A stretch of DNA of 32,373 nt from a virus. Shown here piece after piece: positions 1-24,221 of this stretch. Position numbers and translations under genes: made by a program. The stretch lies in the IMG/VR virus record IMGVR_UViG_3300025480_000181; one strand, given 5' to 3'. Every line of letters begins with the position of its first letter. Position 1 is the first letter of the stretch. The notes under the pieces are model-generated. The model was given only the letters and a program-made list of their open reading frames with translations. It was not told where the DNA came from and ran no database searches.

Positions 1-101
1 CTTTTACCTTTCCTCCCGGCCGATATGGAATCGGTCGGCTTGTCGAGGTAAACGCCGGCGCGCCGAAATCAGCTCTCGGCCGATTAAACAGGCGTTAGTA
101 G

Positions 102-148
102 TTAAGTATCCCCTACGGCGGTAGGGGTCATCGGGGAGGAACCCCCGA
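102..148 (+). promoter_or_regulatory. Putative TATA box (TTAAGTA) followed by two tandem hairpins
   Basis: TTAAGTA at 102-108. CCCCTAC-ggcg-GTAGGGG at 110-127. TCGGGG-aggaac-CCCCGA at 131-148. All upstream of ATG 169. Confidence 0.45.
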
Positions 149-168
149 AAGAAGGAGCAAAAAGAACT

Positions 169-1026
169 ATGGCGGACTTGAGTCAGTTGGGAAACTTGGC
201 CGGAGCGGGGCTCATCCTCGTGGTGGGCGTCCTGTTCCTAGCCTTCGCGGCGGCGGCCTTTTATTTCGGCCGCGGTCGAGGAGCGAAGGCCGCGGGCTGG
301 ATGGCGATTATCGGTGTACTCATCATCGTGGTCGTCGCTATCCCGGTCGCGCTGTTGGCTACGCCGAGTTCGAGTGTCGCCCCGCCCCCGGTCGCCGGGT
401 CGGCGGTTAGCGTTCTCGAGAACTCGGGAATCGGTCTCGCGACGGGCGTGACGTGGAACGCGCAGACGAACATCCTCTCGGTCGACATCGGCTACAACTA
501 CACCGCGAAGGAGTACGTCATCGCGTCGGCGAACACGACCCCGACGGGAGGGTCTCCGACGTTCAACAAGGCGTACGTCATCCTGCCGCTGAACCTGATT
601 CGGACGGACGCGCTGAACTCGACCTACGCCTTCCCGCTACAGGTAACGAGCGTTCCGACGTTTACGACCCTGACGGCCCCCACGACCGTCTACTCGTTCG
701 TCGGGTACACGGCCGCGACGGGAACGACTACGAGCGCTTGGCAGATGAAGTGGTCGGCGGGAACGACCGCCGGGCAGTACTCTACCGTGGTCGCTCCGAC
801 CGTGACGACGAACGTTCTTCCGGGCTCGTTGGCGGTTACCGCCTTCTCGAGCGCGAAGACCGTTCTCCAGATTTCGCTCGCGGGCGGGAACTCGACGGCT
901 GCCCTGGCCCCGTGGAACGCCGGTATCACCACGTTCCAGACGTTCAACATGCCCGTAACCATCGGGCAGGGAACGCCGGCGCTCGTAACGGTTCAGTTCA
1001 TCTGGACCGGCTACGCGAACAACTAG
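169..1026 (+). CDS. Membrane-anchored Thr/Ser-rich surface or structural protein
   Basis: Two N-terminal hydrophobic helices, then a Thr/Ala/Val-rich domain with several N-x-S/T sequons. Purine-rich leader. Confidence 0.8.
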   Translation: MADLSQLGNLAGAGLILVVGVLFLAFAAAAFYFGRGRGAKAAGWMAIIGVLIIVVVAIPVALLATPSSSVAPPPVAGSAVSVLENSGIGLATGVTWNAQTNILSVDIGYNYTAKEYVIASANTTPTGGSPTFNKAYVILPLNLIRTDALNSTYAFPLQVTSVPTFTTLTAPTTVYSFVGYTAATGTTTSAWQMKWSAGTTAGQYSTVVAPTVTTNVLPGSLAVTAFSSAKTVLQISLAGGNSTAALAPWNAGITTFQTFNMPVTIGQGTPALVTVQFIWTGYANN

Positions 1027-1101
1027 GCGGGTCGGAGCGAGAACCCGGTAAGAAGGAAACTCTCGGAGGACCAAAGACCTTCGGACGGACGGAGAGCGAC
1101 C

Positions 1102-1440
1102 ATGCGGACGGGGGCGGCGACTCGAAGTAGCGTACGCCCCCGTCCGAACCCCTTCCTGCCTTCCTATTCCTCTTCTCTACGAGCGAACCCGCGAGGCGTC
1201 TCGCCCGCGCTTATCGGGCTCGTAATCCTATCCGTAGCGGTAGTCGTCGCGTTCACCTTCCTCGGCCTCGTTGTCGCCTCGATATCCTTCCCTCTCGTCT
1301 TCGAGGGCGTTCTCATCCTCGTAGTCGGCCTTACCCTCGGCTTCCTCGTCCGCGGGGCGCTAGCGCTCTACGCGGGTATCGCCTTCGTTATTATCGGGGC
1401 GGTCGTTATCGTCCTATCCGTCGTAGGAGTGATATCGTAG
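1102..1440 (+). CDS. Small 3-TM protein with prepilin-like (class III) leader
   Basis: LRANPRG|VSPALIG followed by three hydrophobic segments. Confidence 0.7.
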   Translation: MRTGAATRSSVRPRPNPFLPSYSSSLRANPRGVSPALIGLVILSVAVVVAFTFLGLVVASISFPLVFEGVLILVVGLTLGFLVRGALALYAGIAFVIIGAVVIVLSVVGVIS

Positions 1441-1692
1441 ATGCCGAAGACGAAGGCGACTATCGAAGAGGTCCGCCAAGCCGTTAAGGAGCATCCCGGA
1501 GAACCGCGCGAGTTCTACGTCGGCTACCTATCGAGCCGCCATACGTACGCGTCGATTCGGGAAGCCATCCGGCGGGCGGTAGCCGACGGGGACGTCGAGG
1601 TCAAGAAGACCGGGCCCCGCCGGAACAACCGCCGCCTCTACCCGAACCTACCGGAGGACCGCGGCGTTCGCTACCCGTGGCAGAAGGAGTAA
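1441..1692 (+). CDS. Small basic protein, possible winged-helix DNA-binding protein
   Basis: Helix-helix-helix then DVEVKK..RRLYP wing-like strands. TAG|ATG coupled to upstream gene. Confidence 0.55.
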   Translation: MPKTKATIEEVRQAVKEHPGEPREFYVGYLSSRHTYASIREAIRRAVADGDVEVKKTGPRRNNRRLYPNLPEDRGVRYPWQKE

Positions 1693-1697
1693 AGAAG

Positions 1698-2027
1698 ATG
1701 TCGAGGGACTACCAGCTCTGGCTCGCGACGGACGGGGAGATTCGGGTCGACGTCGAGATGCCTACGCCCGCCCGACGGGGACGGAAGGGCGGAACGATGT
1801 GGCTCCCGAGCGCGGAGAACTTTACTCACGAGGAGGCCGAGGAGGTCCTCACGATGATTGCGAACCGTAGCCGGTTCAATAACCGGACGATGTACCTTAA
1901 CGGCGGGGACGCTCTCGGGAGCGGGCCGTGGTCGTCCGTCCGGGAACACGAGCTTCTTACGAAGTTCGAGGCCGACGTTCGGGCGGTCGGAGAGCGGGTT
2001 AAGGAACGGACGAACAAGCGCGAGTAG
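1698..2027 (+). CDS. Hypothetical protein (cassette)
   Basis: Start reassigned to ATG 1698 after GAAGGAGTAA. Ends KRE*. Confidence 0.75.
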   Translation: MSRDYQLWLATDGEIRVDVEMPTPARRGRKGGTMWLPSAENFTHEEAEEVLTMIANRSRFNNRTMYLNGGDALGSGPWSSVREHELLTKFEADVRAVGERVKERTNKRE

Positions 2028-2046
2028 AGGAAAAGGAGAAAGGAAG

Positions 2047-2310
2047 ATGGCGGGGAAGAAGTGGGCGAAACACGTACACATGAAGCGCGGCGGTCTCCAT
2101 GGTTGGTGCGAGCACTGCCCGGCGCGGGTCCGTCACGCGGCCCTGCGGACCGGGGCCCGGGAGGACGGAGCGGCCGTAATCTGGATGCGACTGAACTACC
2201 TCGCGAACGTCGCGAACCGGGAGAACAACTTCCGGCTCCACGAAGTCGCGCGGACCGACCAGCGTTGGGTCGCGGCGAACCTCGAGCATAAGGACCTTCG
2301 GCGGGAGTAG
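2047..2310 (+). CDS. Hypothetical basic protein with CxxC (cassette)
   Basis: ATG 2047 after a purine tract. Ends RRE*. Confidence 0.75.
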   Translation: MAGKKWAKHVHMKRGGLHGWCEHCPARVRHAALRTGAREDGAAVIWMRLNYLANVANRENNFRLHEVARTDQRWVAANLEHKDLRRE

Positions 2311-2314
2311 ACCG

Positions 2315-2533
2315 ATGCCTCGTCTCTCCGAATCCCGTCGGGGCGTTAGCGCGGGCGGGGCGGTCCTCGGGACTATCGTCCTGATTATCGGCATCCTCGG
2401 ACTCCTCCTGACGACCTCGAGTTCGTTCTTCGGGATGTCCGTCGACCTCGGGGCGGTCTGGAGTAACGTAATCGCGTGGGGCTTCCTCGTCGTCGGGCTC
2501 TTCGTAGCCGTCGTCTGCTGGTGGAGGCTCTAG
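2315..2533 (+). CDS. 2-TM hairpin protein with prepilin-like leader
   Basis: SRRG|VSAGGAVLG then two hydrophobic helices. Confidence 0.75.
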   Translation: MPRLSESRRGVSAGGAVLGTIVLIIGILGLLLTTSSSFFGMSVDLGAVWSNVIAWGFLVVGLFVAVVCWWRL

Positions 2534-2535
2534 CG

Positions 2536-2904
2536 ATGCCCGGCCCGTACCGCGAGGAGAAGACCTACGTCGGGCCGTACTACCGGGACGGTACTCGAGT
2601 ACCGGGACACCCGTCCCACGCGCTCGTCGGGACGCCGGTCTTCCTCGTCCTCTTCCGTAAGAAGGACGTCCGCGTCTCGGGCGGGACGCGGGCGAACCCT
2701 CGGAATAAGCTCTACAAGTGGCACCTGAAGGGCCGCTTCCGAACCGAGAAGGCCGCGGAGAACGAGCGGCGCCGGTTAATGGCCGAGGGTTACCACGCTA
2801 TCGTCGAGGAGGTCGGAGGCCGGGCGAAGATGCCCTCGCTCCACGAACTCCTGACCGACGCGAACCGCGAGGACCGATTCCAGCGGCAGATGCGGAGGGA
2901 GTAG
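2536..2904 (+). CDS. Hypothetical basic protein (cassette)
   Basis: ATG 2536 after TAGCG. Ends RRE*. Confidence 0.75.
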   Translation: MPGPYREEKTYVGPYYRDGTRVPGHPSHALVGTPVFLVLFRKKDVRVSGGTRANPRNKLYKWHLKGRFRTEKAAENERRRLMAEGYHAIVEEVGGRAKMPSLHELLTDANREDRFQRQMRRE

Positions 2905-3390
2905 ATGCCGAAGAAGGGCTACCCGCGCTATCCCGGACGAAGGCTCCGGTCGTCGGAGTTCGAAGGGGTCGTCGTAGTCCCTCGCTGGTCCTCCGCTTCG
3001 TACGGGGACCTATGGAATCTCGGGAATCGAATCTCGGGCGGCTTCGGGTTCTGGAGGTCGAGCGAACTCTTTAACCACCCGCACCCCGAGGTCATGGTAA
3101 AGGCGTGGTTCGACGCCCTTCGGGAGAAGGGGTATTCGCCGGAGGACGCGGTCCTCTACGGCGACTGGTCGGACGGCCGGCATATCGCCGACAACCTTAC
3201 ACCGACGACTACCTACGCCGAGTTTAAGGCGATGGTAAAGCGGAACGCTCGGTCGGTCGAAGAGGTCCATAAGGAGAACGCGAGCTACCGCGAGAACCCG
3301 GAGGTTAAGCGGGAAATCGAGATTTACCTCGGCCCGTACCATACCGAGGAGTACACCGATTTCCAGCGCCGTGCGATGATGTCGGAGTAA
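2905..3390 (+). CDS. Hypothetical protein, paralogue of 19086..19523
   Basis: Junction start. Shared LG..SGGFG.W and GDW..GRH..D motifs. Confidence 0.8.
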   Translation: MPKKGYPRYPGRRLRSSEFEGVVVVPRWSSASYGDLWNLGNRISGGFGFWRSSELFNHPHPEVMVKAWFDALREKGYSPEDAVLYGDWSDGRHIADNLTPTTTYAEFKAMVKRNARSVEEVHKENASYRENPEVKREIEIYLGPYHTEEYTDFQRRAMMSE

Positions 3391-3394
3391 GAAG

Positions 3395-3604
3395 ATGGCG
3401 ACTACCTACTTAGTCCTCGTAACCGACCGTCGCGCGTACTCGGCCTATAAGGTCTACCGCGCGGGGATTCGTACGCGGAAGGAAGCTATCGCTATCGCGA
3501 AGCGGTACGCGAAGCGGCGGCACGACCAGACGAAGGTTACCCGCCTCCCCGGATACGTTACCGTCTGGGAATCCTACCGCCCCGACTTCGTTCGGAGGGA
3601 GTAG
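3395..3604 (+). CDS. Hypothetical microprotein (cassette)
   Basis: Bounded by junction motifs. Ends RRE*. Confidence 0.75.
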   Translation: MATTYLVLVTDRRAYSAYKVYRAGIRTRKEAIAIAKRYAKRRHDQTKVTRLPGYVTVWESYRPDFVRRE

Positions 3605-3847
3605 ATGGTCGAACAGGTCAAGATGACGATTATCTGCGACGGGGCGACCGATGCCGTTCAGCGTGCTATGGCCGAGGCGATGTATGGCGCGGCGGCTCAG
3701 GTCTGGCGGGCGTGGCACCATAACTCGAAGGAACCCGACCTCGGCCTCGACCTGATGGTCGCGACTGACGAAGCAGGGAACGACCTCCTTCATCCCGGGT
3801 ATAAGGTCGACCAGTCTCGCCTCGACCGGACCGTTCGGAGGGAGTAG
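3605..3847 (+). CDS. Hypothetical microprotein (cassette)
   Basis: Exact junction on both sides. Confidence 0.8.
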   Translation: MVEQVKMTIICDGATDAVQRAMAEAMYGAAAQVWRAWHHNSKEPDLGLDLMVATDEAGNDLLHPGYKVDQSRLDRTVRRE

Positions 3848-4219
3848 ATGCCGCTAAAGTACCCCGAGTCCGAGTACGGCGAGTACTACAACGCCGAAGG
3901 TAAGCGGGTTCGCTACCCCTCGCGATTGTTCAAGAACGACCGGGCATCCGACGTCAATCGAGCTACCGATGGCGCTCTCGGGCGGACGCCGACCGGAGTC
4001 CTCCGGACGATTCGGGACGAAATACGGCGTACCTATTTGTTCGTGCGCGATACGTACGGCGTGCAGGCACCGGACTATAACGGACCCGACGCGGTCCAGT
4101 ACTTCGGCCGACCCCATTCGCCGGAGTTCGTTCGGAGCCAGAAGATAGAATCCGCGGCTATCAATCGGATTACCGCGGAGCTACGAAAGCGCGAAGGTTC
4201 GGCCGCCCGGAGGGAGTAG
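3848..4219 (+). CDS. Hypothetical protein (cassette)
   Basis: Exact junction on both sides. Confidence 0.8.
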   Translation: MPLKYPESEYGEYYNAEGKRVRYPSRLFKNDRASDVNRATDGALGRTPTGVLRTIRDEIRRTYLFVRDTYGVQAPDYNGPDAVQYFGRPHSPEFVRSQKIESAAINRITAELRKREGSAARRE

Positions 4220-4393
4220 ATGCATCCGCTCGCTATCGGTCTCGGAATCCTCCTCTTCCTCGCGGGTATCGCGCTTCTCTTCCTCGGCGCGGTCGCGGCT
4301 ATCTTTACGATAGGGGGCTTCTTCGCTATCGGCGTCGGCGGCTGGCTCGTCATCGGCGGCGGGGTCCTCATCCTCGCGGGGGTCTTCCTATGA
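4220..4393 (+). CDS. 57-aa 2-TM membrane protein (absent from ORF track)
   Basis: Translated by hand: MHPLAIGLGILLFLAGIALLFLGAVAAIFTIGGFFAIGVGGWLVIGGGVLILAGVFL*. Starts at a junction ATG; ATGA overlap with the next gene. Confidence 0.8.
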   Translation: MHPLAIGLGILLFLAGIALLFLGAVAAIFTIGGFFAIGVGGWLVIGGGVLILAGVFL

Positions 4394-4605
4394 AGGAGAG
4401 TCTCGTCCTCAAGCGAATCGACGATAAGATAGACGAGGCGGTTAAGGCGGCGCAGGACCCGCGGGCCGATTCGATGACCCGCTACGGCCGGCAGATGTTC
4501 GCGAACGGCCTACGCCTCGCTCGCGATATGATTGCTACGGACGATGACCTAGCCTTCCCCGCCCTTACGCCCCGAGAGATGGCTCGACGGGCTCGGAGGG
4601 AGTAG
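4390..4605 (+). CDS. Hypothetical helical microprotein (cassette)
   Basis: ATGA overlap. Ends RRE*. Confidence 0.75.
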   Translation: MKESLVLKRIDDKIDEAVKAAQDPRADSMTRYGRQMFANGLRLARDMIATDDDLAFPALTPREMARRARRE

Positions 4606-4848
4606 ATGGTCGAACGCGAATCCCGTTACGGATTCCTCCGTCACTACGCGCAGGGTTGGGTCCTCGATAGCGTCTACGATACCGAGACGGAGGCCCGGAA
4701 GGTTGCCGAGAAGGAGACGGAGTCTCCCCCGGACGCTGAGGGCGTTCTTCTCGTTAAGCTCCTCGGCTCCGTCTCGAAGGGAAGGTACCGCTCCTACGAC
4801 CCGTTCCCGGAGGGGAACTTTACGATGACGCCGGTTCGGAGGGAGTGA
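4606..4848 (+). CDS. Hypothetical microprotein, paralogue of 19524..19742
   Basis: YDTETEARKVAE...LLVKLLG. Ends RRE*. Confidence 0.8.
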   Translation: MVERESRYGFLRHYAQGWVLDSVYDTETEARKVAEKETESPPDAEGVLLVKLLGSVSKGRYRSYDPFPEGNFTMTPVRRE

Positions 4849-4886
4849 CTTTCCGCTACTAAGGAGAATGAAGGAGGAAAAGGAAA

Positions 4887-5177
4887 ATGTGGAACGAAGA
4901 GCGTAGACTAAGGGCGAACGAACGAGCCGTCGCGGGGGTAGCCGGGCACCCGGTTATCGTCGGGTTAATCTTTGCGGTAATCGCGCTCGTACTCCTCGCG
5001 ATTCTGGACCCCGCCGCGGTCGTCGTCTCGTTCGCGGCGATTCTGGTCATCTTCGGGGCGTTCCTCTTCGGAGCAACGGCCCGAATCGGTCATCTCTGGG
5101 GAGCGCTCGCCGGTGTCCTTCTCCTACTGGTAGGGGTTGTCCTACTTGTAGTCGGATGGACTCTCGGTATCCCGTAG
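4887..5177 (+). CDS. Small 3-TM protein with prepilin-like leader
   Basis: LRANERA|VAG then three hydrophobic helices. Purine-tract leader. Confidence 0.8.
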   Translation: MWNEERRLRANERAVAGVAGHPVIVGLIFAVIALVLLAILDPAAVVVSFAAILVIFGAFLFGATARIGHLWGALAGVLLLLVGVVLLVVGWTLGIP

Positions 5178-5187
5178 GAGTAGGACG

Positions 5188-5466
5188 ATGCCGAAGTTCT
5201 TCGAGTGGCCCCGGAACCTACGAGGCGACGAACGGGGGATAGACAAGATTCTCGGGTGGATACTCGGCATCGCCGTTATCCTCCTCCTCGTCATCGTCCT
5301 CGTCGATATCCAGTACCTCGCGGCTATCGTCGCTATCCTCCTCGGGGCGGTCATCCTCTACGTCGGGAAGGGGAACGTGATTACTAGCGTCATCGGCGGT
5401 ATCGTGGCGGTCGTCGGCGTGGTTCTACTCTTCATGGTCGCGGTCGGAGGGAGTCTGCATCTCTAG
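5188..5466 (+). CDS. Small 3-TM protein with prepilin-like leader
   Basis: LRGDERG|IDK then three hydrophobic helices. Confidence 0.8.
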   Translation: MPKFFEWPRNLRGDERGIDKILGWILGIAVILLLVIVLVDIQYLAAIVAILLGAVILYVGKGNVITSVIGGIVAVVGVVLLFMVAVGGSLHL

Positions 5467-5485
5467 GCAGGGGAGGGTATAGGTC

Positions 5486-5947
5486 GTGGCGCACGCTTGG
5501 GTCTGGGCAGTAGTCTCGCTCGGGGTAATTATTGCCGTCGCCTCCTTCGCCCCGCTCCCCGGGTACTACGACGTCCAAGTGAGCGTTACGGCCGGCGAGC
5601 TAGCCCTAATCTTTACGACCGTCTTCTGGATACAGAGCGTTAACTCGCACGTTACGGGTCAGTCGACTATCCTCGACTGGGGCGGTCTACTCGGGATAGG
5701 GCCCCCGGCGCTAACGGCTACGTTCACGATGACCGTCTGCCTCGGGTCCTCTCATTGTACCTCGAAGTCGGAGAACCAATGGTTCCCGAGCATCCCGATA
5801 ATCAACGGGGGCTCCCTTACGGCGACGACGAACTTCGAACTCGGGTATATCCCCGCGGGGAACTACCCGATTTCCGTTACGCTGACCCAGAGCGGCTCGT
5901 CCGTCGCGACTGGCTCGGGGAGCATCTGCGTCGGGGGAGGATGCTGA
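5486..5947 (+). CDS. Secreted/membrane-anchored beta-rich protein
   Basis: GTG start, N-terminal hydrophobic segment, Ig-like C-terminal strands (GNYPISVTL), Cys pairs. Confidence 0.7.
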   Translation: MAHAWVWAVVSLGVIIAVASFAPLPGYYDVQVSVTAGELALIFTTVFWIQSVNSHVTGQSTILDWGGLLGIGPPALTATFTMTVCLGSSHCTSKSENQWFPSIPIINGGSLTATTNFELGYIPAGNYPISVTLTQSGSSVATGSGSICVGGGC

Positions 5948-6399
5948 TGCCGACCGTCTGGCTCGACGAGAACGGCCATACGATTCCCTACGACCCGTTC
6001 GTCGACCATCCGATGTGCCCCTGCGGAGCGATACCGACTCGCCTCGTCGAGGTCGACGAGAACGGGAAGCTCGTCGCGGGCGACCCGAACGACCGTTGGG
6101 TCCTCGGGACCGGCGAGGCGCGCCGAGGGAAGACCGTACGGGCCCGCTACGACCTCTACGGCCACCCGACCATCGGGGAGCACCAGTACGACCGCCTAAC
6201 GAAGGCCCTCGTACGGAAGGGAACGGTCGGGGTCGTTACCGGAGCGGCGTGGGCCGGGGAGCCCGGACCCGGCGAGCCTATTCGGGTCGGCGTCCGCTGG
6301 AACCCGCGGCTCGTCGGGACCTACAAGTTCACCGAGGGGAAAGGTCGCCAGCCCCTCGAGGTAATCGAGGAAGACGCCTCGGCGATTCGGAGGGAGTAG
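5947..6399 (+). CDS. Hypothetical protein (cassette)
   Basis: TGATG overlap start at 5947 (5941 possible). Ends RRE*. Confidence 0.75.
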   Translation: MPTVWLDENGHTIPYDPFVDHPMCPCGAIPTRLVEVDENGKLVAGDPNDRWVLGTGEARRGKTVRARYDLYGHPTIGEHQYDRLTKALVRKGTVGVVTGAAWAGEPGPGEPIRVGVRWNPRLVGTYKFTEGKGRQPLEVIEEDASAIRRE

Positions 6400-6798
6400 A
6401 TGGGGTGGACGTGCTTTACGCCCGAGCGGGGGGCGCGGACGGAGGAGCTACTTCGTAGCGAACTCGGCGGCGAGGGCGGCTACGAAATCCTCGGTATCGC
6501 CGTTCGGAAGGCGGAGTTCTACGACGTCGGCGTCCGTTCTTCGGTCGCCTACCTCGCCGTCCGGAGCAAGAACTACCCGACGCCGTCGGCGCTCGTCGTC
6601 CTCGTTACCCGGAAGAACGGCGCGTTCTGCTACAAGGATATGTCGGAGGATATGGGTCCGAACGAGGACCATTGCCCCGAGAGTATCCTCCGCCTCCTCG
6701 GCCCGATTACCGGCGACGAGATGGGCTACGCCCGAGCTTGGCGGGAGCGGGCGTGGGCGAACCTCGGGAAGGCCCCGCCGGAACTACGGAGGGAGTAA
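6400..6798 (+). CDS. DUF6927-like protein of mobile elements
   Basis: MGW start and FCYKDMSEDMGP..D.CP.SIL.LL.P....A.AWR.R, resembling the plasmid/phage family I recall as DUF6927. Not database-checked. Confidence 0.6.
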   Translation: MGWTCFTPERGARTEELLRSELGGEGGYEILGIAVRKAEFYDVGVRSSVAYLAVRSKNYPTPSALVVLVTRKNGAFCYKDMSEDMGPNEDHCPESILRLLGPITGDEMGYARAWRERAWANLGKAPPELRRE

Positions 6799-6800
6799 GA

Positions 6801-7052: not shown

Positions 7053-7082
7053 GGCTCAACGGAATAGGAAGGAGAAAGGAAC

Positions 7083-8807
7083 ATGAAGCAGATACTAGCG
7101 TTCGTGATAGGGGTAGCTCTCTTGGTCGACGTCTCTCTCTTCGTCGGCCTCGGGTTCGGTTTCGGAGCCCTCTCCGTGACCGGCTCGAACAATCTACAGA
7201 CCTGTAACTCGTCGGACCAGTACTGCTGGACGATGAGCCCGGGTTGGGCCTCCCCCGATAAGCAGCAGGGAATCCAAATCAATATCGAGTCGAGCGTCCA
7301 GCAGGGAGCGAATCCGATTACGACGATGCTCTCGGGGGACCAGAGTACCTCGGTCAGCTTCGGTATGTACGCGCAACTTTCTCCGTACGACGCCTGCCCT
7401 CGGTCGGGCGCTTGGCAGGGCGGTTACGAAGCGTGGTGGGTTATCGTCTGGCCCCAGTCCGTCTCGGGGTCTATCGACGGGACGCAGTTCACGGGCTCGA
7501 CCTGGTCGGGGCAGAACCTCGCCCAGAACGATAGTATCTCGGCGGGCCTCGCGGACCTAGTCGGTTGCCAAGCCGGTACGGGATACAACGATAACGGACC
7601 GACCGGGAACCTCTATACGCATACGGTAACGCTTACCGGGCTCTACCCCGTCATGACGATGAATCTCTACTTCGGTACGTACGGACAGTGGTGCGATAAG
7701 TACGCGGGTTCCGTTACGAACCAATGCTACGGTCTCTCGCAGGCGATTACCGAAACCTACGGGGCCGGAACGGGGAATAACGGAGGCTGGAACGCCGAAG
7801 CCTCGGCCTCGTTCGTCTGGCAGTCCGCGCAGGCTTCCTTCCAGTTCGTCGACCCGCAGAACAACTATAACGGCGGGACGCTAACCGCGATTTTCTATAC
7901 CGCCTATAACGGGGCGAACGGCTACAAGTTCTCTATCGATACCCCGTCGGAACGGCCGAACGGCGGCCAGCTCGATACGAACTTCGCGAATAACCCGATG
8001 ACGATTCCGAACTTCTGTACTACGGGATGCGAGTACAAGTGGGCTATCCCGAAGACCCTCGATACGAACCTCTCGGGGCACGACGTCCAATGGGACCTTT
8101 GGTCCGGAGTCCTCTCGGCCTCGACGGTAGCGGAGCAGATAACGCAGTTCACCGTTATCAATCCACTCTACGCTCCGACGACCCCCGTCGTTACCTATAC
8201 GAGTAGCGGAGCGGGCATCTACCCGGCGGTCGGCGATACGGTTACCCTGACCGTCTACTCGAACGCCTCGCAGGACTCGGGGATGGTCCAGAGCATCGAC
8301 GTCGAGGTCTACTACCTCTCCCCGGGGCAGGGCGTATCGTCCGCGCCTTCGTGCGGTTCGGCTCCGGCTTGGGTGACGCCCTGCCCGAACGGGCAAATCC
8401 TCGTCGTAACGCACGACGGAAAGAACGCGGTCGGGACGTACACCTTTAAGGTAAACCCGCCCATCGGAGATACGGCTATCGCGGTCGCGGCGGTATCCGC
8501 CTCGAATATCTCCCCGTCGCTCTTCGGCTACCAACTTATCAGCATTAAGGCTTCCGACTGCGCGCCGGGCGCTACCTGCGACCCGCTTCAGTCGGGGGTA
8601 ACGACTTGGGAGATTATCGGGCCGATACTCCTGATGGGGGCTTTCATCCTAGGGGCGGTCCTCCTCGTCCTACTCGTTCCGATACCGCCGTGGGTCCGCT
8701 TCGCGCTACCTATCGCGGTCGTAGCCATACTGATACTCCTCTATGCCCTCGGCTGGATAACGGGGCTCTTCGTACCCGGCGGAGCCTTTAACTCGGCGGT
8801 GGCTTAG
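7083..8807 (+). CDS. Large Cys-containing surface glycoprotein, possible virion spike/adhesin
   Basis: N-terminal signal/TM, ~470-aa Ser/Thr/Gly/aromatic ectodomain with 12 Cys, two C-terminal TMs. Confidence 0.8.
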   Translation: MKQILAFVIGVALLVDVSLFVGLGFGFGALSVTGSNNLQTCNSSDQYCWTMSPGWASPDKQQGIQINIESSVQQGANPITTMLSGDQSTSVSFGMYAQLSPYDACPRSGAWQGGYEAWWVIVWPQSVSGSIDGTQFTGSTWSGQNLAQNDSISAGLADLVGCQAGTGYNDNGPTGNLYTHTVTLTGLYPVMTMNLYFGTYGQWCDKYAGSVTNQCYGLSQAITETYGAGTGNNGGWNAEASASFVWQSAQASFQFVDPQNNYNGGTLTAIFYTAYNGANGYKFSIDTPSERPNGGQLDTNFANNPMTIPNFCTTGCEYKWAIPKTLDTNLSGHDVQWDLWSGVLSASTVAEQITQFTVINPLYAPTTPVVTYTSSGAGIYPAVGDTVTLTVYSNASQDSGMVQSIDVEVYYLSPGQGVSSAPSCGSAPAWVTPCPNGQILVVTHDGKNAVGTYTFKVNPPIGDTAIAVAAVSASNISPSLFGYQLISIKASDCAPGATCDPLQSGVTTWEIIGPILLMGAFILGAVLLVLLVPIPPWVRFALPIAVVAILILLYALGWITGLFVPGGAFNSAVA

Positions 8808-8823
8808 GGGAGGAGAAAAGAAA

Positions 8824-14556: not shown

Positions 14557-14558
14557 CG

Positions 14559-14813: not shown

Positions 14814-14817
14814 GAAA

Positions 14818-15324: not shown

Positions 15325-15326
15325 CA

Positions 15327-15803: not shown

Positions 15804-15814
15804 GGGGGAGAACG

Positions 15815-16051: not shown

Positions 16052-16053
16052 CG

Positions 16054-16518: not shown

Positions 16519-16530
16519 GGAAAGAAGAAA

Positions 16531-17217: not shown

Positions 17218-17247
17218 GGGAGTAACCGAGAGAAGAAGGGGAAGAAA

Positions 17248-18195
17248 ATGAAGCGGAAGGGGAGCTACGCGACGCTCGTTCTCGTCGCGCTCGTCGCCGT
17301 AGTCTTCGGTCTTAGCGCCGTACACGCCGCACCGACCGCGAACCTGACCGGGTCGAGCGGACTCCAGCCGGACGCCGTCCCGCCGGCACCGACGGGCCTT
17401 ACCGCGACGGCGACGAACGCTACGGTTATCCATCTCGCTTGGACGAACCCGGTCGGGGCGCTAACCGATAACGAGTACTACGAGTTCGCAGCCGCCGCCT
17501 GTTCTGGCGGCCATAGTACCGTCGATATCGGTTCCGTCGTAACCTCCGCGAACGTCGGCTCGCTCTCTTCGGCGACCTCGTACGGCTTCGAGGTCCTCGC
17601 TAAGAATGCGACCGGCTTCTCGGCTCCGAGTACCTGCCACTCCGGGATGACCTACCCCGACGTTCCGACGAGCCTCGTAGCGAACGTCGCTAGCGATACC
17701 GAAATCGACCTGACGTGGACGAACCCGTCGGGGACGCTTACGGATACCTTCGTAAACGTCTACGTCGCGTCTACCTGTACCGGGAGCCCAACGACGCTCG
17801 ATATGGCCGGGGTCGTAACGGCCTACGCGGATATCGACCTCGCGCAGACGACGACGTATAGCTATACCATTGCCGCCGCGGATACGACCGGGACGGGTGC
17901 GGCCTCGGCCTGCGTTTCGGCGACTACGCAAGCTACCCCGGGCGGCGGTCCGCCCGGCGGCGGTAGTCCGCCCGGCGGAAGCGGTAACTCTACGAACGCT
18001 ACGGGTACCCCGAACTACCCGACGAACGGACCCGCGCTAGCGTTCCCCGCGTTTACCCCGGCGGGCCTTCTCGTACAGAACTTCCTCGGTATCGTATCGC
18101 TTATCGGCGGCGCGGTCCTCTTCGCGTTCCGTCGGTTTATCCTCGGGCCGACCTTCCTCGGAATCGGGCTCGTCCTCCTCTTCGTCGTCTTCTGA
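17248..18195 (+). CDS. Membrane-anchored protein with two fibronectin type III repeats
   Basis: Signal peptide. P.AP..L.A....I.L.WTNP...Y.F.V.A twice. GGGPPGGGSPPGG linker, two C-terminal TMs. Confidence 0.85.
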   Translation: MKRKGSYATLVLVALVAVVFGLSAVHAAPTANLTGSSGLQPDAVPPAPTGLTATATNATVIHLAWTNPVGALTDNEYYEFAAAACSGGHSTVDIGSVVTSANVGSLSSATSYGFEVLAKNATGFSAPSTCHSGMTYPDVPTSLVANVASDTEIDLTWTNPSGTLTDTFVNVYVASTCTGSPTTLDMAGVVTAYADIDLAQTTTYSYTIAAADTTGTGAASACVSATTQATPGGGPPGGGSPPGGSGNSTNATGTPNYPTNGPALAFPAFTPAGLLVQNFLGIVSLIGGAVLFAFRRFILGPTFLGIGLVLLFVVF

Positions 18196-18203
18196 GGAAG
18201 AGG

Positions 18204-18212
18204 TTACATATA
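18204..18212 (+). promoter_or_regulatory. Possible archaeal TATA box upstream of the second cassette block
   Basis: AT-rich TTACATATA in a 40-nt intergenic gap, followed by GGAGGAGG and ATG 18236. Confidence 0.4.
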
Positions 18213-18235
18213 CTAGGGAGGAGGTTCAACGAACG

Positions 18236-18565
18236 ATGACGCGGGGTGAGAGGGACGAGCGGGCGTTCACCCACTTTCTCGAGGATGAGATAGCGGGCGA
18301 GATTCGCCGGTGGGCGCAGCGGACGTTCCGCGGTCGCTTCATCGTTCGACTACGGGGAAGCCCGGGCGACGAGTTCGAGGACGCCGTCTGGCGCGTTACG
18401 ATTAGCGACGGGGCGAAGCGGCGCTTTACCTATGAGTGGGAAGCGAATACGAAGTCGTGGGGGAACGACGCGCTCGAGACGACGACGGTCCCCGAGGCGA
18501 CCCTCGCCGAGATTATCGAGGAGCACGGCTGGACGCGAAAGCCTTCGGTTCGATGGAGGGAGTAG
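18236..18565 (+). CDS. Hypothetical protein (cassette)
   Basis: GGAGGAGG upstream. Ends WRE*. Confidence 0.78.
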   Translation: MTRGERDERAFTHFLEDEIAGEIRRWAQRTFRGRFIVRLRGSPGDEFEDAVWRVTISDGAKRRFTYEWEANTKSWGNDALETTTVPEATLAEIIEEHGWTRKPSVRWRE

Positions 18566-18569
18566 GAAG

Positions 18570-19085
18570 ATGGCGCATAAGCTAGCAATCGGGAAGGGGA
18601 ACACGACGGTGATGACTTGGCCCGAGTTCCGCGAGTTCCTTCGGGGGAAGATAATCTACCACCACCAAGTGAACTGGGTCGAGGAGTGGACGAGTCTCGA
18701 CCGCGAAGCGACGGAGGCCCAGTACTTCCCGTACAACGGGTTCCTGCTACGGAAGGCGGACGCCCTCGGCCGTTACCCCTACGCGGGCTACGGCGAGAAG
18801 ACCCTCGGGACGACCGTTAAGCGAACGGGGAAGGGCTACTGGGACTCCGACTACTGGAAGGTTACCTACAACGACGGACGCAACGACTATACCGGCGCGA
18901 AGACCGGGCGAAAGCCGAAGTACTACGTTACCTTCCATAAGGGTCGTGAGGACGTTCTCTGTAACCGGTGCGGCCGGGAGATTACCGGCCGCGACGTTCA
19001 GCTCGGGAGCTACGTAAACTCGGGCGGCCAAATCTGCGGCGACTGCCGGAACGACGAGCGCGAGAAGAGCCTCCGGAGAGAGTAG
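18570..19085 (+). CDS. Hypothetical protein with C-terminal Zn finger (cassette)
   Basis: CNRC...CGDC. Ends RRE*. Confidence 0.78.
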   Translation: MAHKLAIGKGNTTVMTWPEFREFLRGKIIYHHQVNWVEEWTSLDREATEAQYFPYNGFLLRKADALGRYPYAGYGEKTLGTTVKRTGKGYWDSDYWKVTYNDGRNDYTGAKTGRKPKYYVTFHKGREDVLCNRCGREITGRDVQLGSYVNSGGQICGDCRNDEREKSLRRE

Positions 19086-19523
19086 ATGAAGTCCGTAACG
19101 ATGGCGAGAGCGAACGAAGTCTGGGCCCTCGGGAAGGAACTCTCGGGCGGCTTCGGCCTCTGGGGGACTATCGACCAGCTAACGTCCCTCGACGGCTTTA
19201 CCGAGTGGAAGCGTCTCGCGGTCGTAGAGGGCTGGATTAACGGGGCGAGGTCGCTCGGCTTTACCGATACCGATGCGGCGGCGCTCGGGGACTGGCGGAT
19301 AGGCCGGCACTTCGTCGATACGGCTTCCTTCTGGAACCTCGACCCGCCCGAGGTCGTTCGGAAGAAGGCGCAGAAGGCCGCGGTCGATGCGATTAGCTAC
19401 GCCGTAAAGGACGAGGGTGGTATCGCGGAGGTCAAGCGACAGCTCGTTCTGAACTATACGAACTACTACCCCGTTAGCTACGCGAACCGACTAGGGCGTA
19501 CCCCGTCGGTTAGGAGGGAGTAG
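19086..19523 (+). CDS. Hypothetical protein, paralogue of 2905..3390
   Basis: WALGKELSGGFGLW and GDWRIGRHFVD. Ends RRE*. Confidence 0.8.
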   Translation: MKSVTMARANEVWALGKELSGGFGLWGTIDQLTSLDGFTEWKRLAVVEGWINGARSLGFTDTDAAALGDWRIGRHFVDTASFWNLDPPEVVRKKAQKAAVDAISYAVKDEGGIAEVKRQLVLNYTNYYPVSYANRLGRTPSVRRE

Positions 19524-19742
19524 ATGCCGTTCTATCCGGTCGGTCGGAAGGCGAAGGGCGAACTCCCGATGTACGCTGTTCTTCGGAGCTATAACGAAGG
19601 GACCGCGATAGAACGATACTTCGATACCGAGCGGGCGGCGAAGGACTGGGCCGAGAGCCATCTTCTTCCGACCGACGAGATGCTCCTCGTCGTTAAGCTA
19701 CTCGGCTACGCGAGGCCCGTTACGGCCCCGAGGAGGGAGTAG
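19524..19742 (+). CDS. Hypothetical microprotein, paralogue of 4606..4848
   Basis: FDTERAAKDWAE...LVVKLLG. Ends RRE*. Confidence 0.8.
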   Translation: MPFYPVGRKAKGELPMYAVLRSYNEGTAIERYFDTERAAKDWAESHLLPTDEMLLVVKLLGYARPVTAPRRE

Positions 19743-19745
19743 AAG

Positions 19746-20090
19746 ATGACGAGCGACGAGAAGCGGATGAGCCCCGAGGACGGCGGCGAGGTAGCGGAGT
19801 TCATTCGGAACGTCGACGAGGGGAGCTACGAGTGCCTCTGCGGGAATCACGTTAAGCTGAACGAGCGCTCGTTCCGCGGCTATCCCCACGAGGGCGGCCT
19901 CTCCGATAAGAACGGGAAGCGCTGGTGGGTCTGGGCGACCTGCCCGCGATGCAACTACCAGATGAGCTGGCGGAGCCTCCCGTACCGTCTCCGCCTAGAG
20001 CCGATGCCCGAGGGCTGGAAGCCCGGGGCGCCGGGATGGGAGCCGGGGTGGCAGGCTCGCCGCGTCAGCGGCTTTCTTAGGAAGGAGTAA
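19746..20090 (+). CDS. Zn-ribbon protein (cassette)
   Basis: ECLCG...TCPRC. Ends RKE*. Confidence 0.78.
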   Translation: MTSDEKRMSPEDGGEVAEFIRNVDEGSYECLCGNHVKLNERSFRGYPHEGGLSDKNGKRWWVWATCPRCNYQMSWRSLPYRLRLEPMPEGWKPGAPGWEPGWQARRVSGFLRKE

Positions 20091-20092
20091 CG

Positions 20093-20578
20093 ATGTCCGA
20101 CCCCGACGAGGACTACGATATCGACGAGGAGATGCGTCACGAGGCCCTTGTCGAGGCCGCGCACGACGCGCGCGAGGAGGAGCGGCGCGCGAAGTGCCCT
20201 GATTGCGGGCAGAGCCACGAAGGGCTCGACCCCGATACGATTCGGAACCTCCACGCCGCGGCGACGAACTGGTATAGCGACTCGAACCGGCCGGGGTCGA
20301 GGGTCCTAACGAACGTCGAGCACGGCGGTATCCACGGAGAGAAGCCGGACCCCCGTTGGGCCGCCGCGATGGACCATCTCGGGAAGCTCGTCAAGACCTA
20401 CTTCTTCGATAAGTACCACGAGGTCTACCTCGAGAAGTACGAGAACGGCGCTATCGTTTACTACGTCCCGACCGGCTGGTGGTACTACTATCCGAAGGAC
20501 ATGATGGACGACGCCTTCGACTTCGCCCGCTCCCGGGGAACCCATTCGAGGGCGCTCAACCGTATCTTCGGAGACTAG
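20093..20578 (+). CDS. Hypothetical protein (cassette)
   Basis: CPDC..H. Followed by an intergenic copy of the motif. Confidence 0.78.
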   Translation: MSDPDEDYDIDEEMRHEALVEAAHDAREEERRAKCPDCGQSHEGLDPDTIRNLHAAATNWYSDSNRPGSRVLTNVEHGGIHGEKPDPRWAAAMDHLGKLVKTYFFDKYHEVYLEKYENGAIVYYVPTGWWYYYPKDMMDDAFDFARSRGTHSRALNRIFGD

Positions 20579-20589
20579 GGAGGGAGTAG

Positions 20590-20880
20590 ATGACGAAGCG
20601 CTCGGTCGAGGCCGCGGAGAGGAGAATCCGGAAAGAGGTAGTCGGCTGGCTCCGCGCTACGTACGTCAAGAAGTCGCTCCGCGCCGAGGTGAACGTAGAC
20701 GAGGATACGCTCGACGATGGTCCGTACTTCTGGGCCTATATCTACGACGGGAAGAAGCTCGTCGCCGAAGGCTCGGGATGGTTCGAGCAGCAGACCGACC
20801 CGTTCGACGAGATGGAATCGGACCTGAACGAGAAAGGCTACCGTCGTATTCCTCTACGGAACCTGATACGGGAGGACTAG
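20590..20880 (+). CDS. Hypothetical protein (cassette)
   Basis: Motif start. Ends RED* TAG|ATG. Confidence 0.78.
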   Translation: MTKRSVEAAERRIRKEVVGWLRATYVKKSLRAEVNVDEDTLDDGPYFWAYIYDGKKLVAEGSGWFEQQTDPFDEMESDLNEKGYRRIPLRNLIRED

Positions 20881-21492
20881 ATGCCCGACGACCTCTTCCG
20901 GGAATCGAACGACCCACCCGACCCGCACCGGAAGCCGTCGATGAACGAGTCGGACGCGGACTTTATCTACCGGACGGGGAGGAAGTTCTGGCTCGACCCC
21001 GATGGGACGAACCGTTGGGATATCGTCGAGCAGAACGGCGAGCCGCTCGTCGAGGACCTCGGCGCCCCGGTCGGGGAGTGCCAAGCCTGCGGCCATGCTA
21101 TCGAGTTCAAGTTCTACGTTCGGCACCCGACCCGGGGCGTCTCGTACGTCGGCTCCGAGTGTATCAATAAGGTCCGGATGACCTTCGACCTCGTCCGGCG
21201 GGCGAGGATGGACCGGGCGCTCTATAAGGCGAAGCGGATGCAGGAGCGGAAGGCCCTCGATAAGAAGATAGAGCTTCTCGAGGCCGCCGCCTCGGACCCG
21301 CCGGTACGGGTCGCCTACTGGGACTATCTCGGCCGGAGCCGGAACCTCTCGGAGAGCCTTCGCTGGTACGCGCAGGTCCTACGGGATAGCCGGAAGCGCC
21401 GGCCGATGTTCGAGAACGCCCTTCGCGCTCCGCTCGAGAAGTACGGGCACCCCGAGGTCTTTCCCCGGCGAAGGGAGAAGCCGCTTATATGA
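20881..21492 (+). CDS. Zn-finger protein (cassette)
   Basis: CQACGHAI...YVGSEC motif. Confidence 0.78.
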   Translation: MPDDLFRESNDPPDPHRKPSMNESDADFIYRTGRKFWLDPDGTNRWDIVEQNGEPLVEDLGAPVGECQACGHAIEFKFYVRHPTRGVSYVGSECINKVRMTFDLVRRARMDRALYKAKRMQERKALDKKIELLEAAASDPPVRVAYWDYLGRSRNLSESLRWYAQVLRDSRKRRPMFENALRAPLEKYGHPEVFPRRREKPLI

Positions 21493-21680
21493 GCCGTCTC
21501 GCCGAGCCTCCCGAACCTCCGCGCGAAACGCTACGGGGTCGCCTCTACCGATGCGAGCGATGCGGCTACGACCGGCGATTCTACCTCTCGCCGCCTATCG
21601 GCGAGCAACGGAGATGCCCGAAGTGCCGGCGCTACTCGCTCGAGCCGGTACGGGACGAGCGGGTCCTACGGAGGGAGTAA
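21489..21680 (+). CDS. Zn-ribbon microprotein (cassette)
   Basis: CERC...CPKC. ATGA overlap. Ends RRE*. Confidence 0.78.
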   Translation: MSRLAEPPEPPRETLRGRLYRCERCGYDRRFYLSPPIGEQRRCPKCRRYSLEPVRDERVLRRE

Positions 21681-21901
21681 TGCCCCGTCCTAACCCCCTT
21701 GACGAGCGGGAGGCCCGAATCCAGCGTGCCCACGACGCCTACCAGAAGGCCCGGGGAATCGCTGCCGCGGACCCGACCCCCGCGAACCTTACCGAGGAGA
21801 ACCGCCTCCATAAGGAGTACGTAACGCTTCTCTACGAGGAAGAGCCTTCTCCTAGACGGGAGCAGACCATCGAGGATTTCGCTTCGATACGGAGGGAGTA
21901 G
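21680..21901 (+). CDS. Hypothetical helical microprotein (cassette)
   Basis: TAATG overlap start. Ends RRE*. Confidence 0.75.
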   Translation: MPRPNPLDEREARIQRAHDAYQKARGIAAADPTPANLTEENRLHKEYVTLLYEEEPSPRREQTIEDFASIRRE

Positions 21902-23056
21902 ATGCCGAAGGTAATCGTAGTGCTCGCAATCGCGGCGACCGTCGTCATAGCGGCCTTCTCCGCGGCGACTACGATAGCGTACGGTTCCCTCGGCGCGCGG
22001 GGCGGGCTGTCGGTAGACGATACGAATAACTCGACCCTTCCCTCGCAGGACTTCCTCGGTACCCCGACGGTGAACGTAACGACCGTTCCTATGCTCTACG
22101 ACGACTCCGCGAGCTGGTTCTCGAACGGCTGCTCGTACAACGGGTCCGTACCGTATACGGTCCCGTTCCCCTCGAACGACCCGAACGCGACCCCCGGTAC
22201 CCAGATGGCCGTAGTAAACGCGCTCGGGCCAGGCTACGGTTGCGGGACGGGCTGGTTCGCCGAGGTCTGGAACTTTACGGCGAACGCGACCCTCGTCGCG
22301 GAGAACGATTGGTTTAACGTTACGACGAACTGGACCCTCTCGAATACCTCGGGAGAAGTCGTAGGGGTTAACTCGGTCTCCGTGACCGTTAGCTCGGAGA
22401 CCCTCTCGACGAACGGGACCTTCTCGCTCTACGTCGAGTTCCCGGGGAACCCGGTATCGCTCGGAACGACGAACGTTACGGTCGAGGCGGCGCCGCCGGT
22501 CTCGGTTCCCGCTACCTTCGGAGGGAACGGACGGGACGCGCGAGGAACCTTCCCTCCGGCGAACGTATCGCAGAACTTCGTTGCCGACCCGGCCCTCGAG
22601 CCCCAACTCGTCGGGGAGCAGTCGACGATATACTCCGACGCGGTAGCGGCGCCGGATGGTTGCTCGAATAGCGTCGCGAATAGTACTCCCGGCGTCCTAA
22701 CCGGTATCCCATTCCCCGAGCCCGGCGGGAACTACGAGCAGGCGCTCTTCGCGAACGCCGGCGAGGTCTCGGCCTGCTCCGGCGGCGACTACGGGATGCT
22801 CTTTACCTTCCTCGTCTCGACGCCGCTCTCGGCGGAGAACGATTGGTTCAACGTTACGACGACTTGGGTGACCCCGGGCGGGGCGACCGTTACCGGGTTT
22901 AGCGACTCCCTCGTAAGCGTCGTCCCGGGGAATCTCCCGGGCGGGTCGGAGAACGCGCTCCTCCTCGTCTACGTCGACTACGGGGCGGGAACCCCGACCG
23001 TCCTATCGTGCTCGATTACGGTACAAGCGACCTCGCAGGTGGTCGTCGTAGGGTAG
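21902..23056 (+). CDS. Secreted glycoprotein with two internal repeats
   Basis: Signal/TM. AENDWFNVTT occurs twice (31-bp DNA repeat, one mismatch, 22298-22328 and 22832-22862). Many N-x-T/S sequons. Confidence 0.85.
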   Translation: MPKVIVVLAIAATVVIAAFSAATTIAYGSLGARGGLSVDDTNNSTLPSQDFLGTPTVNVTTVPMLYDDSASWFSNGCSYNGSVPYTVPFPSNDPNATPGTQMAVVNALGPGYGCGTGWFAEVWNFTANATLVAENDWFNVTTNWTLSNTSGEVVGVNSVSVTVSSETLSTNGTFSLYVEFPGNPVSLGTTNVTVEAAPPVSVPATFGGNGRDARGTFPPANVSQNFVADPALEPQLVGEQSTIYSDAVAAPDGCSNSVANSTPGVLTGIPFPEPGGNYEQALFANAGEVSACSGGDYGMLFTFLVSTPLSAENDWFNVTTTWVTPGGATVTGFSDSLVSVVPGNLPGGSENALLLVYVDYGAGTPTVLSCSITVQATSQVVVVG

Positions 23057-23067
23057 GAGAGAGTAGA

Positions 23068-23499
23068 ATGATTTTCGGACGACGACCCTCGGGGGCTACG
23101 GACGCGGAACTAATCTCGGCTTATATCGAGAGCCGAGTCGAGGAGAACCACTTCGAGTCGGAACTCGAGCACGAGCGTATCGAGAACGGGCCGGAGGCCG
23201 AGCATTGGTCCTTCGAATGGCGGGAGAACTACCGTACCCGTATCGAAGGAATCGAAGAACGTCTCGGGGCGGTCCGCGAGCGGATGGCCGATATTATCGA
23301 TGACCTCCGCGCTCGTAAGTACCGGCTTAACTTCGAGTATGAGGACGACCCGCTTACCGGGGCGCCTATCAATAAGGACCGTACCCATCTCTATACTATC
23401 CAGAAGGGACGACGGCGGTCCGACTTAATCGCGATAGAGTCGGTCGCGCGACGCCGTTTCCCGCCTACGGAGACGGGGCTAATACAGTGGAGGGAGTAG
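23068..23499 (+). CDS. Hypothetical acidic/coiled protein (cassette)
   Basis: ATG 23068 after GGAGAGAGTAGA. Ends WRE*. Confidence 0.78.
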   Translation: MIFGRRPSGATDAELISAYIESRVEENHFESELEHERIENGPEAEHWSFEWRENYRTRIEGIEERLGAVRERMADIIDDLRARKYRLNFEYEDDPLTGAPINKDRTHLYTIQKGRRRSDLIAIESVARRRFPPTETGLIQWRE

Positions 23500-23501
23500 C
23501 G

Positions 23502-23966
23502 ATGACGATAGCCGACGAGAAGCCGTACGCCTCGGACCTAAAGGAGATGGAGCGCGTCTGGGACGAATACGTCCGGAAGGAACTCGGCCGCGACTATCGG
23601 GGCGAGGTCCGCGACGGGGAGAATCCAAAGCGACGAGCCTCCATCGACCGTATCGATATCATCGACGGGGGGCCCGGGGGCCGCTACGACGTAACGCTCG
23701 TCGTCGTCCGGGTCGCCCGCCGGCACGGCGACCTCGAGACGCGGGACGGGGTCGTTTGGAAGCGGCGGTATGACGTTCTCGATAAGATGCTCGTCCGGGA
23801 CGCCGCGATACAGGAGAACCGTTCGATATCTGAATGGGAGCGGAACCGCCGGTCGGAGGACCTCTGGCGGAATACCCTGACCTACGATATTCAGGACTCG
23901 ATTCGCGAGGGTGGGTTCCCGAGCCTTCGGAGGATTCGAAGCGAGTACGCGTTCCCGAGGGAGTAG
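23502..23966 (+). CDS. Hypothetical protein (cassette)
   Basis: Motif on both sides. Ends PRE*. Confidence 0.78.
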   Translation: MTIADEKPYASDLKEMERVWDEYVRKELGRDYRGEVRDGENPKRRASIDRIDIIDGGPGGRYDVTLVVVRVARRHGDLETRDGVVWKRRYDVLDKMLVRDAAIQENRSISEWERNRRSEDLWRNTLTYDIQDSIREGGFPSLRRIRSEYAFPRE

Positions 23967-24221
23967 ATGCCGCGAAAGCCCCCCGAGTTCCTCGAGGAAG
24001 GATGCCCTGCCTGTACCTACCATTTTCTCTATAAGGGAACGGCGGATGGCTCGGGCTCAGGCGCGGGGGCGATTATCGCAATCGCGGCAGTCGCCATCGG
24101 TGCTACCGTTGCCGCCGGTCTTCTGGCCAATCGAAAGGTCCCGTGCCCTCGGTGCAAGAACCCTATTCGGCGAGGCATAGCCCAATGTCCCTATTGCTAC
24201 AGCTCGATCACATGGTCGTGA
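23967..24221 (+). CDS. TM plus Zn-ribbon microprotein, last junction-started ORF
   Basis: CPAC, hydrophobic helix, CPRC...CPYC. First GATC of the window at 24206. Confidence 0.65.
   Translation: MPRKPPEFLEEGCPACTYHFLYKGTADGSGSGAGAIIAIAAVAIGATVAAGLLANRKVPCPRCKNPIRRGIAQCPYCYSSITWS

Follow-up and report, generated by a model that had tools for sequence, protein, structure and literature searches.

Synonymous loss of GATC from the backbone of a ~97-kb integrative element found in a chromosome assigned to peat Thermoplasmata

The IMG/VR virus record IMGVR_UViG_3300025480_000181 is a stretch of 32,373 nucleotides (nt; one strand, 5' to 3', at its full length called the window here) that raises a simple question: why is the tetranucleotide GATC missing from its first 24.2 kb and frequent in the rest? 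Positions 1-24052 are the right end of an integrative element, virus or plasmid, whose circular map measures about 97 kb, whereas the remainder belongs to the chromosome of its host. Below we present evidence that the loss of GATC probably results from long-term avoidance of restriction by this mobile element.

Absence of GATC from positions 1-24205

By exact scan, positions 1-24205 contain no GATC and the first site is at 24206, as the first-pass annotation had stated; a further claim, of more than 20 sites in the remaining 8 kb with many in ftsZ, agrees with the 31 sites counted in 24206-32373, nine of which lie within ftsZ (31380-32372). The number to be expected in 1-24205 is 82.5 from base composition, 94.6 at the naive rate of 1/256 (previously put at roughly 90), 119 under a maximal-order Markov model and 160 under a first-order model. 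With the Markov correction (0 against 119) the deficit thus goes beyond lower-order composition. GATC is the only 4-mer missing from the region, and the dinucleotides GA, AT and TC occur in the element at least as often as expected.

The coding sequence leads to the same result. When synonymous codons are shuffled while the proteins are kept (200 shuffles of 47 plus-strand genes with 21.2 kb of coding sequence, chosen by length and third-position GC), 101.3 ± 7.3 GATC sites arise, with a minimum of 79, against none observed. A separate shuffle expectation (220) was set aside, being about twice the Markov and first-order values and suspected of counting the palindrome on both strands. After a G-ending codon, isoleucine is encoded by ATT (56 times) or ATA (42 times) and never by ATC, whereas other contexts hold 180 ATC, 11 ATT and 6 ATA codons, a preference that had been described correctly before. 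Likewise, aspartate preceding a C is always GAC (88 times, against 0 for GAT), while GAT is used 80 times in other contexts. The succession xGA-TCN occurs 0 times, given 177 xGA and 332 TCN codons. The purge of GATC is purely synonymous, and codon choice closes all three reading-frame routes to the site. Since codon usage and lower-order composition fail to explain the absence, selection must have acted on the nucleotide sequence itself.

It might be argued that GATC is missing as a side effect of base composition, codon usage or mutation bias, or through an error of assembly, as the dinucleotide signature of the element is very unusual (odds of 0.33 for CA/TG and 1.37 for TA). The chance of this is practically nil: none of the three constituent dinucleotides is below expectation, the Markov and codon-preserving nulls give 101-119 sites, and many samples yielded this sequence in independent assemblies, with exact proteins in 130-170 blocks of the metagenome collection. 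A compositional artefact is ruled out by the Markov and synonymous-shuffle nulls, and an assembly chimera by the many independent assemblies together with contigs of the free element and of the empty site.

An integrated element of about 97 kb

The features of the window that define the element and its boundary are the following.

1..24052, plus strand: right-hand 24 kb of the integrated element, with 99.97-100% identity to the free-element contigs L222 and L223 up to 24052
23967..24221, plus strand: chimeric open reading frame (ORF) of 84 amino acids (aa), with the first ~28 codons from a 161-aa gene of the element and the rest chromosomal
24036..24052, no strand: junction (attR crossover zone); the free element matches up to 24052, the empty chromosome (L239 and L240) from 24036
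24053..32373, no strand: host chromosome (assigned to Thermoplasmata), with 99.94-100% identity to element-free, PolD-carrying contigs of 200-750 kb
24206..24209, no strand: position of the first GATC, within the chromosomal portion of the chimeric ORF

Past 24052, the two free-element contigs run into other GATC-free element genes. Chromosome contigs with an empty site (L239-L243, 200-750 kb, all carrying PolD) contain the flank of the window without the element and match from 24036. Compared by eye, element and chromosome share a short, imperfect microhomology at the junction (CGGAT..TC). The chromosomal part of the chimeric ORF comes from a small gene for a transmembrane and zinc-ribbon protein, which is intact in L239; at the same position L222 continues as a different, 161-aa product. 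Composition switches near 24000, within about 100 nt. As the match to the element ends at 24052 and the first GATC is found at 24206, the junction precedes the first GATC by 154 nt, and to this precision GATC marks the element boundary sharply, as had been claimed. The same junction is present in a contig of another assembly (L224), shared up to 24239. Breaks in two chromosome contigs, at 24099 and 24180, are what one would expect if a sample contains occupied as well as empty sites. The right junction alone is visible in the window, and the evidence for integration consists of this junction, the empty sites and the integrase. With an integrase, an empty target and an independent junction all present, we are dealing with an integrated mobile element with a tyrosine integrase.

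In some strains a 2.4-kb island (L224:12135-14561, L247:3174-5597) adjoins the same small chromosomal ORF, and in a 175-kb contig it is located between chromosome and element. The island contains genes for a 205-aa protein and a 202-aa partial tyrosine integrase as well as two small ORFs, which may be due to imprecise excision or represent another integrated remnant.

The map of the element was obtained by an outward walk, in which exact-protein look-ups in metagenome contigs led to a closed gene order. Copies are abundant: across 139 blocks of the collection, contigs of 50-200 kb encode exactly the 574-aa product of 7083-8807. The order starts with a SNF2 helicase, RecT, an AAA (clamp-loader-like) ATPase, DUF1643 and a 305-aa N6/N4 methylase, followed by an 875-aa family-B DNA polymerase (PolB), an ABC-type ATPase and helix-turn-helix and TFIIB-like proteins. 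Then come the 350-aa tyrosine integrase (a Phage_integrase protein, encoded outside the window), a 532-aa ATPase, the 24 kb of the window and TatC, after which proteins of 2474, 1093 and 1097 aa and glycosyltransferases lead back to the SNF2 helicase. Both ends of one 97,174-bp contig fall within about 125 nt of the same map point, and several other contigs measure 98-102 kb.

A composite of 97,174 bp, joined via identical overlaps, contains 2 GATC sites where 435.6 are expected. Its CA/TG and TA odds are the 0.33 and 1.37 given above, and the composition of 1-24000 is uniform (GC 0.63, more exactly 0.626; CA/TG 0.38; TA 1.34). The two sites, at L209:3889 and L209:10177, are the only ones in the backbone and are conserved in all variants read; one is situated in a 3-kb stretch in which no gene is called (L209:1412-4623) and the other in a 198-aa gene adjoining the integrase. 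The GATC-free block of the first-pass annotation is therefore real, but its scale was underestimated, since it represents only a quarter of the element.

The element has about 150 genes, mostly without a known family. In 1-24052 some 50 plus-strand genes are tightly packed and nearly all lack a Pfam or PHROGs family, the exceptions being membrane-anchored, glycoprotein-like products with PKD and fn3 domains. Among about 95 element proteins searched (Pfam, PHROGs, PADLOC) there is no restriction enzyme and no recognisable capsid, portal or large terminase, the hallmarks of a tailed archaeal virus (Caudoviricetes), and for the 532-aa protein there is a weak ESM-Atlas lead to Zot/HerA-type ATPases. 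Scans of viral_contigs and genome_contigs with a pattern of the 574-aa protein, as well as tblastn against phage records, gave no match, while PolB scans returned no relative from viral_contigs and one identical copy only from metagenome_contigs.

An element that encodes its own GATC-specific nuclease would be immune for want of the site while degrading host DNA, and such an enzyme could be hidden among the many genes without a family. We consider this highly improbable: none of 33 of its larger proteins matches a restriction enzyme model (PADLOC, Pfam), the element integrates and persists in a GATC-rich chromosome, and the other palindromes depleted in the element (see the next section) would be left unexplained.

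Some further observations concern the gene content. The three huge proteins (2474, 1093 and 1097 aa; L246:10809-18233, L248:3433-10004) adjoin TatC and have no Pfam family; the largest has internal nucleotide repeats and, in a different variant, is 2090 aa long. At gene junctions in 2894-23969 a 14-nt motif, GGAGGGAGTAGATG, recurs in 17 exact copies plus three more with one mismatch. It comprises a GGAGG of Shine-Dalgarno type, a TAG stop codon and the ATG of the gene that follows, and many products end in RRE. Between junctions of this type whole small genes are present or absent among element variants (e.g. L203 against L202); used as a probe in viral_contigs, the motif gave single chance matches only. 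At 21553-21642 (minus strand), ARAGORN reports a 90-nt tRNA-Gly(TCC) inside a plus-strand element ORF, which is possibly a false positive.

Avoided sites and candidate restriction systems

Depletion of GATC is confined to the backbone of the element. Host chromosome from relatives (117 kb) contains 719 sites against 776 expected, with a longest GATC-free gap of about 1.2 kb, and the flank in the window (31 against 47.7 Markov-expected) has about the density of host DNA. Recent cargo is normal as well: the inserts in L212 (2600-7200), L210 and L220 contain 34, 8 and 9 sites against 38, 7 and 17 expected, respectively. The 4.6-kb cargo of L212 encodes a DndC-like PAPS reductase (PADLOC DndC, E 4.9e-52), DUF429, an HSDR_N-like protein and an HATPase_c protein that weakly matches a restriction enzyme, and judging from these matches it is possibly a defence module.

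The DndC-like protein bears on the proposal that GATC is targeted by a non-classical system, e.g. a phosphorothioation-based (Dnd/Pbe-type) defence. A GATC-modifying system of the phosphorothioation type, cited for some archaea in PMC7230728, offers a precedent. The gene in question, however, is located in cargo with normal GATC and not in the host, and no Dnd system has been shown in the host genomes, so that we regard this explanation as decidedly improbable.

GATC is not the only site avoided. In the composite, CCWGG is found 15 times against 118 expected (5 against 36 in the window) and GAGCTC once against 42, while host DNA contains both at about the expected number (319 against 313 and 161 against 157). 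AATT is also low in the element (19 against 82) and not in the host (47 against 38). Two more sites are depleted in the composite, namely AGGCCT (3 against 23) and AAGCTT (0 against 15), although here the host itself is low (16 against 30) or somewhat low (8 against 13). CTAG shows a milder reduction (141 against 230, a ratio of 0.61) and is low in the host too (40 against 88.5).

For CCWGG a possible counterpart is encoded next to the element, in the chromosomal flank.

26141..26707, plus strand: SocA/Panacea-domain protein, antitoxin-like (Pfam PF13274, E 1.4e-5)
27064..27939, plus strand: predicted type II restriction endonuclease of the EcoRII-C/Ecl18kI kind, CCNGG/CCWGG class (Pfam PF09019, E 1e-8, above cut-off)
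27936..29234, minus strand: predicted cognate N4/N6 DNA methyltransferase (Pfam PF01555; PADLOC MTase_II PDLC03322, E 3e-110)
29653..31284, plus strand: DDE (IS240-type) transposase-like gene upstream of ftsZ (Pfam PF13610, E 1.5e-22)
31380..32372, plus strand: ftsZ, its 3' end cut by the end of the window (Pfam Tubulin and FtsZ_C), with nine GATC sites

The endonuclease also matches Ecl18kI (E 1.7e-4) and EcoRII (E 0.0099) in PDB and REase_II in PADLOC (E 4e-4), and the convergent methylase gene overlaps it by 4 nt. The depletion of CCWGG in the element is consistent with the predicted specificity of this pair.

The flank places the host as well. Its ftsZ has 99.5% nucleotide identity to contig DATEQS010000048.1 of a Thermoplasmata metagenome-assembled genome (G001), and on account of this match we assign the host to an uncultured peat or soil Thermoplasmata archaeon. 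The element is missing from G001, the closest species genome. The transposase-like gene upstream of ftsZ occupies the same position in L002 (90% identity) and in L009, L021 and L036 (~78%), and is not present in G001 and L003-L005.

For GATC the first-pass annotation had suggested a nuclease or methylation system in the usual hosts of the element and had named Dam and GATC-specific restriction-modification genes as the thing to look for. In relatives of the host this search does return a DpnM-like methylase paired with a type II endonuclease; that the pair cuts GATC, and is the selective agent, is what we infer. The methylase of G001 is a full-length family match to TIGR00571 'dam' (299 bits, cut-off 115). 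In PDB it is closest to DpnM of the GATC-specific DpnII system (2dpm, E 4.5e-73), followed by E. coli Dam, and it aligns with both over the full length. In this alignment the positions equivalent to K9, N120, L122, R124, P134 and Y138 of E. coli Dam are retained, which we take, from Dam-DNA structures, to be residues that read GATC.

The methylase gene shares 4 nt with its neighbour, whose 440-aa product gives a full-length match to PADLOC REase_II (E 3.8e-24). This candidate endonuclease is a DUF6996/6997/7226 protein, outside the DpnII family (PF04556); it has no sequence match in PDB, and no mention of DUF6997 was found in the literature searched. Among 149 genomes of the order, methylase and endonuclease-like genes lie side by side in no fewer than five, and a sixth has them fused (G051:C2:356589-358166, where a Dam-family methylase and a DUF6997 endonuclease-like domain share one open frame of 832 aa), and DpnII-family enzymes adjoin Dam in two further genomes.

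Viruses of haloarchaea provide a precedent: in the HF1 group GATC and CTAG are absent entirely, and other haloviruses are fully devoid of GATC as well, which has been attributed to host restriction (PMC7230728, PMC2194725, PMC6286503). Together with the backbone-only deficit, the co-depleted palindromes and the systems in the host lineage, this leads us to favour restriction avoidance, in support of the earlier interpretation. The element would move among many Thermoplasmata host strains, in whose range restriction systems that target GATC would be common enough to exert pressure. Over a long history, every backbone GATC site open to synonymous removal would have been lost, and the same process would have thinned CCWGG, GAGCTC, AGGCCT, AAGCTT and AATT. 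DNA outside this history (the flank and recent cargo) keeps its normal GATC, and consequently the count jumps at the junction.

Several observations weigh against this explanation. Any Dam-family match is limited to 28 of the 149 genomes and a strong one to about 14 (about a tenth), with DpnII in two; with so few genomes of the order carrying Dam-linked systems, a near-total purge may need an additional or more pervasive pressure on GATC. The candidate systems come from G001 and other genomes of the order rather than from the host strain of the window itself, and similarity is what suggests GATC as the specificity of the pair. Furthermore, a Dam-positive host would protect the integrated element by methylation anyway. 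The only diverged relative found, a PolB with 50% identity on a 2.9-kb contig, has a normal GATC count (23 against 26.5 expected), so that the trait is specific to this lineage rather than family-wide.

The patchy distribution of the Dam family also allows a different view, in which methylated GATC is what the element avoids: hosts with Dam would mark it, and methyl-dependent nucleases (type IV, Mrr/DpnI-like) of recipients would cut it. The 28 genomes with a match among 149 would make the element alternate between marking and non-marking hosts, and loss of the site removes both risks, that of marking and that of direct cleavage. In Haloferax volcanii Mrr restricts Dam-methylated DNA, a precedent that was also raised for the GATC-free haloviruses (PMC7230728). 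Nonetheless, we find this unlikely. The Dam-family genes examined adjoin type II endonuclease genes and do not stand alone, and the co-depletion of several unrelated palindromes is a better fit to classical restriction; no type IV enzyme turned up, though none was sought.

Relation to known elements and a second signature

Avoidance of restriction sites is already known, and what we describe is an extreme form of it in a new host group and a new, widespread element. As in other prokaryotic viruses and plasmids (Rusinov et al. 2018, PMC6286503; halovirus BJ1, PMC2194725), palindromic restriction-modification sites are below Markov expectation in the mobile genome specifically. Such depletion is typically partial, whereas here 2 sites are left against 436 expected over 97 kb, and the loss is wholly synonymous.

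The closest parallel is the HF1 group of haloarchaeal myoviruses (HF1, HF2, HRTV-5/7/8, Serpecor1 and Hardycor2). Its members are archaeal, encode their own replication genes and have no or almost no GATC; other palindromes are thinned, and DNA of proviral or acquired origin is purged to a lesser degree (PMC7230728), as is the case here. They are, however, tailed viruses of halophiles, whereas our host is a non-halophilic peat or soil Thermoplasmata archaeon by assignment, and the present element is integrative, has a circular map and lacks a recognisable capsid, portal or terminase. CTAG, entirely missing from the HF1 group, is only mildly low here, and the other avoided sites differ (CCWGG, GAGCTC, AGGCCT and AAGCTT).

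With regard to the candidate system, the methylase resembles those of DpnII and Dam systems in its full-length alignment, whereas the partner is a DUF6996/6997/7226 protein instead of a PF04556 enzyme and is a putative type II endonuclease by its PADLOC model. Borgs (PMC11208441), too, are large archaeal elements from wetland-type samples with many family-less genes. This likeness is one of description only: Borgs are linear, several hundred kb long and associated with Methanoperedens, unlike the present element of about 97 kb with its circular map, tyrosine integrase and putative Thermoplasmata host.

A second signature of the element is a shift from CA/TG to TA. Odds are 0.33-0.38 for CA/TG and 1.34-1.37 for TA in the element, against 0.66 and 0.57 in the host. 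The shift is brought about by synonymous choices. The ratio of GTA to GTG is 123:34 (6:68 in the host) and that of CTA to CTG 71:51 (9:62 in the host). Codon junctions show the same trend, with odds of 0.22 for C|A and 2.12 for T|A in the element against 0.84 and 0.51 in the host. Relative to host composition, the loss of CA and TG (about 32 per kb) equals the gain of TA (about 32 per kb), by arithmetic on the measured odds. The shift could be due to selection directed at the dinucleotide or to a C-to-T bias in CpA context.

A bolder proposal, which we put forward as speculative and rather doubtful, is that the purge points to a GATC-cutting family of DUF6996/6997/7226 endonucleases, biochemically uncharacterised, which adjoin a DpnM-like methylase or form one protein with it. 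In peat Thermoplasmata these enzymes would be a main obstacle to gene flow. The CA/TG-to-TA shift may reflect a pressure of its own that acts on a dinucleotide instead of a site, from a mutational process or from defence (e.g. CpA-directed cytosine deamination or recognition).

The absence of GATC combined with the depletion of CA/TG provides a marker, readable from sequence only, for the backbone of a hitherto undescribed replicon of about 97 kb with a wide distribution in peatland metagenomes. With it, old backbone can be told apart from recent cargo and host DNA to about 150 nt. Overall, the finding points to defence systems by which gene flow in an uncultured archaeal order is shaped, and singles out one methylase/endonuclease pair as a candidate for biochemistry.

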